Below are positions 12,994 to 15,939 of a stretch of 15,939 nt of DNA, one piece after another. The notes under the pieces were generated by a model, which saw nothing but the letters and a program-made list of their open reading frames with translations, made no database searches and was not told the origin of the DNA. Origin of the DNA: Candidatus Thorarchaeota archaeon (lineage in GTDB: Archaea > Asgardarchaeota > Thorarchaeia > Thorarchaeales > Thorarchaeaceae); assembly GCA_048882045.1 (NCBI GenBank), contig JBHLRZ010000053.1, positions 1 through 15,939 of the forward strand, read 5' to 3'. Within the stretch, counting starts at the first letter, position 1. Each line of letters opens with the position of its first letter. Both the position numbers and the translations under genes were made by a program.

Positions 12994-14814
12994 TTATATT
13001 TGGGCTTCTGGCTCAGCTACTTTCAGACAGCTGAATCCATACTCTCCTTCGTATGAAATCTCTGCTGTTTCACTCGGCGTGATGATCAAGACGACTGAGT
13101 ACTTCTTAACAATAGCTGGTTTTGCATCAGTCACTTCATATTCTCCATTAGTGAGAGCCAATTTATGTCCTGTCTTCAAGCCCTTTAGTTCAGGATGATA
13201 TGTCAGATCGATTGCAACCCTGGCTTGTAGCTTGTCATTCCTTACAACAAGCATCTCTTTCTTGTTGATCTCTTCAAGAGAGAGAATGTTCATCCAGCCA
13301 GTAAGTTCCTCCTTGAGGTCCTGCACATCTACTGCACCATCAGTCGCCATCCCTTCAACAGGTGGGATTTGCCCCTGAATCTCATTCAGAATGGGTGTAA
13401 TTTGGGATGTATTCCACCCCTTCTTCACGAATGCCTTTAGAGCGTGTTCTGCAATCTTCTCAAGTGCTGGCTTGAATCTATCATGGGATGATGATGAAAC
13501 TTTGTAGAGCATAAGGAATGATCCGAGTGCTCCTTCCTCCCTGTTGTATGCAACTCCAATCTTGTATGCAGTTACTGCTAGTTGCCACGCATTGTCATGG
13601 TCATCGAACTGTATGCTATACTTCGTCAGATCATTAAGCATGGACATTGTGACATCTGGATGTTGGAGCTTTGTCTTGGTCAGACTGAAACCTCCCATGA
13701 ACTTCCTGAGGATCTGCATTGTGATGTAAAGGCCTTCAGAGGTTTCTAGCATGTCCTCTATCCCAATCCTCTGAATCATACTGTCGTACAGACTATAATA
13801 ATAGTCGATCTCATCATAGTCCTCTCTAATGAGTGCTAGTACAATCCTTACGAAGAAGACTGATGCCTTTAACTCATCATTAGCGACCTCTGCAAACATG
13901 AGTAGTCGAAATGCTTCATCACTGACAGACAAAGCTTCCTCCATCCCCTGTCTAGTTCCTCGATATAGATGGCATATCATCTCCAAGTAGTAGAGGAACA
14001 AAGTGAGGTCTGCTGCGTGTCTGACAAGACTTCCGTGGGTCTCATGATCTTCAGTAAGAGTCGAAACGATGAGTAATCGCTCAATTTCATTCTGAATCTC
14101 TTCGATTTCCTGAGCCAGCGTATCATATTTTCCTTCTCTGAAATCCTCAAACATAGAAGGAATGTCTGCCTTGATGTCCTCGAGGAAGTCTAATACAAAC
14201 AACGGTTGCCCCTTTGAGAGCTTTCTGTCAACGCCTTCGGCTGGGCGTTTTACCGTACGTAGGACTCGAAGTGCGTGTTCCTCAATAATGCGTATCCTTG
14301 TCACTGGATCATAGGATTCTTGCCTAGCAATGCTGTATCTTACTTCTTCTGAGTAGATACGGTCTCTGATGACAGAGAGGTCTTGTTTGAGCTTCTCATT
14401 ATCGACAGACTCCATCAACTCAAGTGTGTATGCCGAACCCACGATTCCTTCGACTTCAACATTGAGATCCTGTATAGTGTTCAGGAGCTTGAGGTCGCTT
14501 GTGACAATCTTAGAACCCTTGTTTCTCATGGCGCCAAGGACAAGTGACATGTCATTCGGCTGAGGGAGTGAACTTTCAGGTCTGTTGATGCTTTCAATGA
14601 ATGATTTGATGTCCTTAGAGAGGGTTTCATCGATCTGGACAATGTTCTCTGCTTCCCTCCGGAGATACCATCTGAGCTCTTGGAACACCTGTCTTGTCAT
14701 CCACAGCTCCATTCCTGCCGCGTCAGCTGCTTCTTTCACTATCACTACATCTTTGGGTCTCTCTGAGAAGCCGCTGATGAAGAAATTCGCATCTAGGTAA
14801 ACTCTCAATCTCAT
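12994..14814 (-). CDS. PIN-domain ribonuclease-like protein with long alpha-helical (TPR-like) region and C-terminal beta (OB-like) domain, 606 aa
   Basis: RVYLDANFFIS, MTRQVFQEL, QPNDMSLV, IVTSDLKL supply the D/E/D/D acidic PIN tetrad. ATG at 14814 is preceded by SD GGAG; the 54 upstream codons in the ORF track are probably untranslated. Confidence 0.8.
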   Translation of the reverse strand: MRLRVYLDANFFISGFSERPKDVVIVKEAADAAGMELWMTRQVFQELRWYLRREAENIVQIDETLSKDIKSFIESINRPESSLPQPNDMSLVLGAMRNKGSKIVTSDLKLLNTIQDLNVEVEGIVGSAYTLELMESVDNEKLKQDLSVIRDRIYSEEVRYSIARQESYDPVTRIRIIEEHALRVLRTVKRPAEGVDRKLSKGQPLFVLDFLEDIKADIPSMFEDFREGKYDTLAQEIEEIQNEIERLLIVSTLTEDHETHGSLVRHAADLTLFLYYLEMICHLYRGTRQGMEEALSVSDEAFRLLMFAEVANDELKASVFFVRIVLALIREDYDEIDYYYSLYDSMIQRIGIEDMLETSEGLYITMQILRKFMGGFSLTKTKLQHPDVTMSMLNDLTKYSIQFDDHDNAWQLAVTAYKIGVAYNREEGALGSFLMLYKVSSSSHDRFKPALEKIAEHALKAFVKKGWNTSQITPILNEIQGQIPPVEGMATDGAVDVQDLKEELTGWMNILSLEEINKKEMLVVRNDKLQARVAIDLTYHPELKGLKTGHKLALTNGEYEVTDAKPAIVKKYSVVLIITPSETAEISYEGEYGFSCLKVAEPEAQI

Positions 14815-14822
14815 GTCTCCGT

Positions 14823-14934
14823 CTGGTTTGACTGGCCAATGATCAGAAACCGAAGTCCTGTCCAGTTGGACTTTCGCATGTGCTCCATCATTAAGGTCTT
14901 TTGCTCTCTCCGTTGGCCGTAGAGATTGGACAGG
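14823..14934. promoter_or_regulatory. Structured element in the long leader of the PIN gene (strand uncertain)
   Basis: CCTGTCCAGT (14857-14866) / ATTGGACAGG (14925-14934); AAGTCC (14853-14858) / GGACTT (14868-14873); GGTTT (14825-14829) / AAACC (14847-14851); GGCCAA (14834-14839) / TTGGCC (14913-14918). Confidence 0.35.
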
Positions 14935-15080
14935 CAGAACACCGGAAAAAGGTTGCGATACACACGTAAAAGACAAGAAAAATCTGTCAAGTTGTCATCT
15001 AGAGGGGGCGATTCATTTTTTTAACCTAAATCAACGAAACAGTACTCTTTCTGTAAGTCCGCGCCAGGCGAAATTGTCAC

Positions 15081-15095
15081 CATATACTTAATATG
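15081..15095 (+). promoter_or_regulatory. TATA-like box inside an inverted repeat CATAT-N5-ATATG, upstream of the RNA candidate
   Basis: ACTTAATA at 15086-15093, about 25 bp before the 5' strand of the closing helix. The identical 8-mer recurs at 15446-15453, 40 bp before the pepF ATG. Confidence 0.5.
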
Positions 15096-15111
15096 TTGTT
15101 ATGTCCTATTA

Positions 15112-15372
15112 TGTGCTATCACCTAAACTCTGGTTTTGAGACACGCTGGAGTTTCGCCGACACAAAGGTATATCTGCGAATGCTTCAATCTCATTACCAT
15201 CAAGGGCGCTGCCGATTCATTGTGCGAGTCGGTCCAATTCTTTGGCGTGCGGAATTGGCCTCGCGAGTTACCTCAAAATGGGTTCTTCGGAACGCGGCTG
15301 CACAAAACATTAGGTGGTGGCGCGGCAATGCACCGCGTTGCTCGCACGAAGCGGCGCCCACCTTTTCCTTTT
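15112..15372 (+). ncRNA. Unclassified structured RNA candidate (~210-nt core plus 3' hairpin and U-tract)
   Basis: 15-bp closing helix 15112-15126/15310-15324, several internal hairpins, a cUUCGg tetraloop (15282-15293), a possible 7-bp pseudoknot; non-Watson-Crick positions in the stems read as G-U on the + strand. Confidence 0.6.
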
Positions 15373-15446
15373 GCATTCTATCTATAATTGACCGCAGTTG
15401 ACATTAAAACATTAGGAGGTGGCGCGGCGCGCTTTTTCCTTTTACA
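15304..15446 (+). repeat. Imperfect direct repeat, 2 copies: AAAACATTAGG(T/A)GGTGGCGCGGC at 15304-15326 and 15406-15428, each followed downstream by TTTTCCTTTT(G/A)CA
   Basis: 22 of 23 nt identical; the second copy lacks the internal segment between two GCGGC microhomologies. Confidence 0.85.
15312..15372 (+). terminator. GC-rich branched hairpin followed by TTTTCCTTTT
   Basis: GGCGC (15319-15323) / GCGCC (15354-15358) plus AGGTG/CACCT; inner GCAATGC/GCGTTGC; T-tract at 15363-15372. Confidence 0.5.
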
Positions 15447-15492: not shown

Positions 15493-15939
15493 ATGGAAGA
15501 TAGCATTGAACCCCCAGTCTGGGATCTTTCACCTCTTGTCGAGAGTCATGACTCGGAAAATGTAAAGAGGTTAATGGATGATTCATTGAAACAGACTGAA
15601 GTATTTGAAAGAAAGTACAAGGGCCGAATCAAAGAACTAATCCCTGCAGATATTCATGTCCTCCATAAGGAATTGGATTCGATCTTAACGTCTTGGATGC
15701 ATATCTTCCGTTATGCATTCCTTAGGCAGAGCCAAGATGGAGAAGATAGGATAGCAAATGACTTGCGTGCATATTCGATGAAGATTGATACCGAGATTAA
15801 ATCGAAGATCATCTTCTTCGATATTGAGATTTCTAGAACTCTTGTGGATAGACCTGATATTGTTCAACATCCAGATGTAGAAGAATATAGGCACGCATTA
15901 GAGAAAGCAACAGAGAGGGGAAAATACCTGCTCTCTGAG
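15493..15939 (+). CDS. pepF: Oligoendopeptidase F (peptidase M3B), N-terminal part; runs off the window (absent from the supplied ORF track)
   Basis: Manual translation MEDSIEPPVWDLSPLVES...FERKYKGRI...FRYAFLRQSQD...IFFDIEI...EEYRHALEKATERGKYLLSE with no stop. WDLS, YKG, YA.L, F..EI, Y.H.LE and LSE are the PepF N-terminal pattern. SD-like GGGTGG at 15482-15487. The HEXXH motif lies outside the window. Confidence 0.85.
   Translation, partial: MEDSIEPPVWDLSPLVESHDSENVKRLMDDSLKQTEVFERKYKGRIKELIPADIHVLHKELDSILTSWMHIFRYAFLRQSQDGEDRIANDLRAYSMKIDTEIKSKIIFFDIEISRTLVDRPDIVQHPDVEEYRHALEKATERGKYLLSE

Follow-up and report, generated by a model that had tools for sequence, protein, structure and literature searches.

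The stretch of DNA analysed here, referred to below as the window, covers positions 1 to 15,939 of contig JBHLRZ010000053.1 (assembly GCA_048882045.1) of a Candidatus Thorarchaeota archaeon. Near its right-hand end lies the gene of a structured non-coding RNA, transcribed as a unit of its own; the RNA is about 255 nt long and runs on the + strand from 15110 to 15366, both ends being approximate and placed from the extent of conservation among 16 to 48 homologues. A TATA-like promoter box precedes the gene at 15082-15094 on the same strand. Upstream, on the - strand, a gene for a PIN-domain protein occupies 12994-14976; homologues of this protein align from about residue 56, and its start is probably an ATG near 14814, giving about 604 aa, and not the TTG at 14976. 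Downstream of the RNA gene, a decayed second copy of its 3' part is found at 15406-15446 (+ strand), followed by an open-ended reading frame at 15493-15939. The latter codes for the N-terminal end of a protein similar to M3 oligoendopeptidase F, with 48% identity to a Peptidase_M3 protein of 615 aa whose gene occupies the corresponding insertion site in another species. The remainder of the window's M3 gene is missing from the assembly.

An original prediction, made from the letters alone, had proposed a non-coding, structured RNA of about 210 nt on the + strand, transcribed from its own promoter, and all the strings that it quoted were found in the sequence at the positions assigned to them. 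Its core is borne out by the TATA box upstream, a covarying fold, and the lack of any open reading frame kept in the homologues. In MAFFT alignments of homologous loci the box, which reads TTTTTATA in most relatives and the degenerate ATATACTTAATAT in this genome, is kept about 26 nt upstream of the conserved 5' tail (CUAUCACC); the start site given here is a putative one. The + strand of 15112-15324 folds at -76.4 kcal/mol (z = -3.12, with none of 200 dinucleotide shuffles equal to it), and the - strand of the same segment has no excess over shuffles (z = -1.25). Furthermore, the consensus pairs include 216 G.U cells versus 10 A.C cells, which fixes the + strand. No conserved reading frame was found across the RNA among its homologues, and a 102-aa reading frame at 15093-15401 was rejected as coding because neither its frame nor its length is kept. 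The proposed length, in contrast, was too short. Conservation, together with the helices P-e, P-b and P-a described below, reaches ...GCGGCGCCC (15351-15359), which is followed by ACC (15360-15362) and a pyrimidine/U run; since it continues this far, the proposed end at 15324 falls inside the most conserved loop of the molecule, and the probable 3' boundary lies about 45 nt past it, so that the RNA extends to about 15366.

BLAST searches with 15090-15380 against related genomes gave matches of 78-86% identity over about 270 nt in about 13 congeneric genomes, and weaker matches in other genera. Two covariance models of the best-conserved part, R1 built from 16 sequences and R2 from 48, found the RNA in 68 of the 87 genomes of the class and in 16 of its 17 genera, with one full copy in each genome; among high-quality genomes (at least 90% complete and at most 5% contaminated) it was present in 21 of 24. 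Outside the class, the covariance models found no copy in 113 sampled genomes of 22 other families of the Asgard phylum, and five chosen outgroup genomes had no match to R1 or R2 even at E <= 10. The family had been thought probably restricted to Asgard archaea, and its matches are indeed confined, as far as searched, to one class, Thorarchaeia. The search for homologues and covariation across Asgard genomes had been suggested as a check of the prediction; both were found, with a signal far beyond chance. No virus-borne copies or attP-like tails were present in IMG/VR, a 16-mer scan of the genome contig collection returned only chance matches in GC-rich bacteria, and we found no description of the RNA in the literature.

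Comparison with known RNA classes gave an equally negative outcome. No Rfam 15 family matched the window at the gathering score or the segment 14800-15520 at E <= 10, and at E <= 10 no family touched the RNA in 20 diverse homologous loci. The original failure to match the RNA to SRP RNA, RNase P RNA or tRNA is repeated here, as none of these matches it (Rfam 15, ARAGORN). The genome has its SRP RNA on contig C11 at 46113-46423 (a full-length match to RF01857, 80.5 bits, E = 3e-18) and its RNase P RNA on contig C1 at 75143-75483 (RF00373, 167 bits), and identity with either was rejected because both are located elsewhere and the RNA matches neither model at E <= 10. The 80.5 bits of the SRP RNA fall below the gathering score of 96.5 bits, so that standard annotation would miss it. 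The new RNA founds an uncatalogued family, confined as far as searched to Thorarchaeia: single-copy, class-wide, independently promoted, highly structured and not in Rfam.

RNAalifold, applied to 16 homologues, produced an architecture unlike the one predicted originally, and its pairs were then written out explicitly and counted. The molecule is composed of a 5' tail (15112-15126), a 5' hairpin whose apical motif is conserved, and a 3' domain of 157 nt. In this domain P-a and P-b, of 9 bp each, are stacked on each other and open into a four-way junction from which P-c, P-d and P-e branch. In the 16 sequences, 98.3% of the cells of the 3' domain were paired and 28 of the 44 pairs showed compensatory changes, while only 31-47% were paired in controls with the partner slid by 1-3 columns. 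When 48 sequences from 16 genera were used, 96.6% were paired and 36 of the 44 pairs were compensatory (423 cells) in an alignment that was fitted to the model and somewhat favours structure, and with which an independent MAFFT alignment agrees; none of 500 shuffles paired as well, and the slid controls gave 33-42%. When the 3' domain is folded by itself, its minimum free energy structure contains P-a to P-d.

Within the 3' domain, the 5' strand of P-a (GGGCGCUGC, 15204-15212) pairs with 15351-15359, with 97.9% of cells paired and 6 of 9 pairs compensatory in the 48 sequences. An internal loop of 8 x 2 nt separates it from P-b, in which UGUGCGAGU (15221-15229) pairs with 15340-15348 (94% paired, 8 of 9 pairs compensatory), and the 3' strands of both helices together occupy 15340-15359. 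Hairpin P-c (15231-15260) has a stem that varies freely with compensation and a near-invariant loop, UUGGCGUGC, in which GGCGUGC is invariant. Hairpin P-d (15264-15289) is made of a lower stem CGAG/UUCG, an upper stem ACCU/GGGU and the loop CAAAAU, with compensatory changes at all four upper-stem pairs and at 2 of 3 lower-stem pairs; its CAAAAU-type loop was grouped with the near-invariant segments, yet its sequence and length vary across the family. A kissing contact, in which UUUG of the P-c loop would pair with CAAA of the P-d loop, was considered and rejected, as the variants in the homologues show no consistent compensation. Helix P-e (15291-15301 with 15330-15339) is formed by AACGCGG:CCGCGUU plus GC:GC, is 98.5% paired with compensation at 7 of 7 pairs, and closes an apical loop of about 28 nt. 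This loop holds the 20-nt, G-rich AUUAGGUGGUGGCGCGGCAA (15309-15328), which is identical in all 16 sequences of the A2 alignment and nearly so in the 48. In one genus (locus L085, G068:C65:46956-47156), a hairpin of about 35 nt is inserted in the loop between AGGUGG and UGGCGCGGC, and the loop therefore consists of two modules.

The 5' part at 15132-15198 is a long interrupted hairpin, for which RNAalifold on 12 same-genus sequences gave the stems GG/CC, UGAGA/UCUCA, GGAGU/GCUUC and UCGC/GCGA. Its apical motif GACACAAAGGUAUAUC (15159-15174), with the consensus RACC-NNAAG-NUWUAAC, matches as a strict pattern in at least 36 of 48 homologues and lies at a nearly fixed distance before the 3' domain.

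The pairings proposed originally fared unevenly when counted on the 16 homologues. The stem CCAAUUCU/GGAAUUGG, which is P-c, was 92% paired with 6 of 8 pairs compensatory, and UUCGC/GCGAA was likewise upheld (86% paired, 3 of 5 pairs compensatory). A 15-bp helix proposed to close the molecule survived in part: it was 74.6% paired with no compensatory change, its core CUAUCACC:GGUGGUGG (15116-15123/15313-15320) being kept and the rest not. Conservation was missing for the hairpin AAACUCUGG/CUGGAGUUU (46% paired), for the pseudoknot that was to join its loop UUUUGAG to CUCAAAA (45%), and for the stem CGAUUC/GAGUCG (51%). The closure of a multibranch domain by GCUGC/GCGGC clashes with the covarying P-a, and the tetraloop hairpin GUUC-UUCG-GAAC is kept in close relatives only, its UUCG being the 3' strand of P-d.

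The core of the closing helix deserves separate consideration, as it would join the 5' tail to the invariant loop. The tail core, at 15116-15123, is kept in at least 13 of the 16 sequences, and its changes are C>U only; compensation cannot be seen here because the 3' side of the helix never varies. Since the helix crosses P-a, P-b and P-e on different nucleotides, it would constitute a pseudoknot and not an alternative fold; the nested minimum free energy fold of the full RNA chooses it at the expense of P-a and P-b. In other genera, C-rich segments complementary to the same invariant loop are found at different places. When the loop was matched by RNAduplex with the 5' regions of the homologues, five lineages (this genome, part of genus g3, g4, one g10 genome and one g7 genome) gave duplexes of -23 to -27 kcal/mol, for which no more than 5 of 100 shuffles were as good (z = -1.6 to -4.1), and the partners differ in sequence and position among lineages (for example CGCCGUGACCAUCACCC, GCGCCGCCAUCAA and GACGCCACCACUC). 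The remaining homologues, including most members of the genus, had RNAduplex values no better than shuffles, and two-sided covariation is absent, the loop being invariant. We take this as moderate support for a conserved contact between the 5' segment and the loop.

The 3' end of the RNA resembles that of a tRNA. In all 48 homologues P-a starts with GGGC and ends with GCCC, which is followed by ACC and then by U or C, never by A; in this genome the invariant ACC opens the segment 15360-15372 (+ strand), where it is followed by the pyrimidine/U run UUUUCCUUUU. The ending ...GCCCACCA is shared by many of the genome's tRNA genes, and the terminal GC-rich helix and ACC of the RNA agree with these ends in 7 of 8 letters. 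Because the base after ACC is U or C while tRNA genes encode CCA, the resemblance is to an acceptor end without A76. All the tRNA genes that ARAGORN found in the genome encode their 3' CCA, and many have introns (38 candidates with the intron option, 17 without it). The RNA also shares with tRNA and tmRNA genes the duplication of its 3' part behind inserted genes. Unlike them, it has no cloverleaf, no T-arm and no anticodon-like loop, and its A76 is never encoded, although every tRNA gene here encodes CCA; its helix is of 9 bp plus 9 bp, versus 7 plus 5 in tRNA, and all 48 homologues have G-C as the third pair of P-a, not the G.U (G3.U70) of tmRNA. A tRNA or tmRNA was accordingly rejected: ARAGORN found none in the window, the putative 'anticodon' loop (P-d) varies, and no conserved reading frame is available for a tmRNA tag. 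We know of no tmRNA, and of no Ro/Y RNA systems, in archaea.

Several known structured RNAs invite comparison. The archaeal SRP RNA (RF01857) and RNase P RNA (RF00373) are alike in their size range, in being single-copy and of housekeeping type, and in their long-range helices, whereas the lack of a model match even at E <= 10 separates the RNA from both. The large orphan RNAs of bacteria, OLE, raiA, ROOL and GOLLD, are similar in that they are a few hundred nucleotides long, have many covarying helices and invariant loops, are restricted to certain lineages, and were discovered by comparative genomics ahead of their function; they differ in having no sequence or covariance-model similarity to the RNA, which has an archaeal host and a different architecture. 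OLE RNA often adjoins membrane-protein genes, as does the RNA of Thorarchaeia, but nothing points to the neighbouring membrane proteins binding the latter. The Ro60-bound Y RNA and YrlA combine a terminal stem and a tRNA-like feature in a structured RNA, as seen here; on the other side, the RNA has no Rfam match and the genome has no match to TROVE/Ro60. No TROVE/Ro60 gene was found in this genome, which is 93% complete and in which the positive controls were found; a La gene was not found either, in a search that had no positive control. Neither a C box (RUGAUGA), a D box (CUGA), nor ACA-tail or K-turn features of box C/D or H/ACA RNAs were seen in the sequence, and no snoRNA-type Rfam family matched it.

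Downstream of the RNA, in most genera, lies an operon for a membrane protein of about 190 aa and an FtsX/MacB-type permease of about 950 aa; the operon carries a conserved TATA-like box of its own, CTAATTAAG, about 27 nt ahead of the probable start codon. Several genomes have 1.4-3.4 kb of foreign genes between the RNA and this operon, and in the present genus such genes are followed by decayed copies of the 3' strand of the RNA; no tail remnants of this kind were seen in the other genera examined. The remnant at 15406-15446, in which AAAACAUUAGGAGGUGGCGCGG/AAAACATTAGGAGGTGGCGCGG is followed by an internal deletion of about 29 nt and then by a U/T-run, points to an old event, an insertion or a duplication, that separated the RNA from the gene after it. 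The assembly has the RNA and the downstream operon on different contigs. Contig C20 (57999-63021, locus L034) breaks off within another copy of the RNA tail, which shows 100% identity along 77 nt. After this copy come three single genes, for LRR proteins of 446 aa and 376 aa and for a NosD/beta-helix protein of 696 aa, each followed by an RNA-tail remnant, and past them the conserved operon for a 191-aa protein and the FtsX permease. The window's contig, C53, and C20 are probably neighbours with an assembly gap between them. A recombination core GGCGCGG-CAAUGCA-CCGCGUU was rejected, as the remnant boundaries are too variable.

The neighbouring genes, which encode membrane or surface proteins, point to no protein partner, and none suggests the guide or template function that had been raised as a possibility. 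The PIN-domain protein upstream is single-copy and occurs in 82 of 151 sampled Asgard genomes; it was rejected as a partner because many Asgard families have it but lack the RNA, and because the two are usually unlinked within the class.

The TATA box upstream, the U run downstream, the TATA-like box belonging to the operon, and the foreign genes lying between the two indicate that the RNA is a transcription unit of its own. On balance we favour, with somewhat better than even confidence, a stable RNP or structural RNA that would act in trans, either bound by protein or organised by itself. Its invariant G-rich loops would be sites of protein or tertiary contact, and the 5' segment would pair with the P-e loop and close the molecule as a pseudoknot. 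The tRNA-like end would give a defined and protected 3' end, might make the RNA a substrate of tRNA end-processing enzymes, and would explain why, in this genus, inserted genes land at the tail of the gene, as happens with tRNA genes. Such a combination would link RNA biology with genome plasticity. The near-constant adjacency to the membrane-protein/FtsX operon could reflect a local regulatory role instead.

To our knowledge, very few structured RNAs are known in archaea beyond rRNA, tRNA, RNase P RNA, SRP RNA and guide sRNAs, and none of these RNAs is confined to Asgard archaea, which among prokaryotes are the closest relatives of eukaryotes. The covariation described here is unusually clean, and the RNA is large and class-wide, which makes it a ready target for structure determination and for pull-downs of its partners. 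If it were merely a lineage-specific scaffold or regulator, it would still be a new RNA family for annotation pipelines.

The invariant loop lends itself to another interpretation, that of a base-pairing regulatory sRNA in which the G-rich AGGUGGUGGCGCGG would be a seed for C/U-rich targets and the RNA's own 5' segment an intramolecular mask. The loop stays constant although its partner within the molecule changes, which hints at a further constraint from outside, and the loop resembles a Shine-Dalgarno sequence (AGGUGGUG versus AGGAGGUG); the AUCACCU of the 5' tail is what we take to be the usual 3' end of archaeal 16S rRNA, the 16S rRNA of this genome not being assembled. We nevertheless consider this interpretation rather improbable, as the genome contains no site complementary to the loop core within 2 mismatches apart from the RNA's own copies, none of its tRNA 3' ends matches the loop, and about 255 nt with a 44-pair fold is much more structure than a seed-type sRNA needs. 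A related candidate, pairing of the loop UGGUGGCGCGG with a tRNA 3' end in the manner of a primer-binding site or a T-box, was rejected since no tRNA of the genome ends in CCGCGCCACCA and the nearest, tRNA-Phe, has a central mismatch.

The acceptor-like end would gain further meaning if the RNA were an Asgard-specific housekeeping RNP RNA with its 3' domain treated as a tRNA mimic. RNase P would then cut before GGGC, the CCA-adding enzyme would turn ACC into ACCA, and the 5' and 3' parts would perhaps remain joined through the helix between the 5' segment and the loop. This elaboration appears improbable to us as a whole. Were it true, archaea would have a previously unknown tRNA-like effector RNA, and processing or charging of the RNA in the manner of a tRNA would make it a tRNA mimic of a new type.

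The position of the RNA with respect to the operon raises the question of whether it could be a cis-acting leader, a riboswitch or attenuator of the co-oriented membrane-protein and FtsX/MacB genes, with P-a and the U-run acting as terminator. In most genera the RNA does lie 60-300 nt upstream of the operon in the same orientation, its GC-rich helix followed by a U-run looks terminator-like, and an alternative local hairpin, GGCGCGG/CCGCGUU, is present in this genus. Set against this, the conserved TATA-like box of the operon stands at a leaderless distance, other genes are inserted between the RNA and the operon in at least 6 genomes, and one genus has the operon about 13 kb away and on the opposite strand. 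Furthermore, the alternative hairpin is not conserved, P-e covaries while its loop stays fixed, and P-a covaries within the core fold and not as a switchable element. A leader function is thus decidedly unlikely.

The same fold could be read as that of a new ribozyme, self-cleaving or otherwise catalytic, with the four-way junction and the invariant loops as its active site. Junctions of this kind, in which unpaired nucleotides are invariant and a pseudoknot is probable, are typical of ribozymes, and the RNA has no evident protein partner; however, no Rfam ribozyme family matches it, its one copy is chromosomal and not associated with mobile or repetitive DNA, and no data point to a cleavage site, so that we regard catalysis as very unlikely. 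The idea that the RNA or its gene belongs to a gene-capture platform, an attI-like site whose transcript would help to insert or express single-gene cassettes, draws on the cassettes with displaced RNA-tail copies behind the gene in this genus and on a strong RNA promoter pointing into them, yet it is extremely unlikely given that the remnants occur in one genus only while the RNA is conserved in 16, and that the left ends of the remnants are spread between -65 and -27 nt. The gene is more probably a passive target.

Two smaller features were observed in the downstream region. In the remnant at 15406-15446, a T>A change makes a perfect GGAGGTG. In L034 (5960-5990, - strand) and the homologous loci of many genera, a conserved ATGCGTGA...GAGCTAATTAAGGGA is found just upstream of the gene for the membrane protein of about 190 aa; it is probably a regulator site followed by the TATA box of a leaderless mRNA, although callers of open reading frames read it as the codons MSELIKGK.
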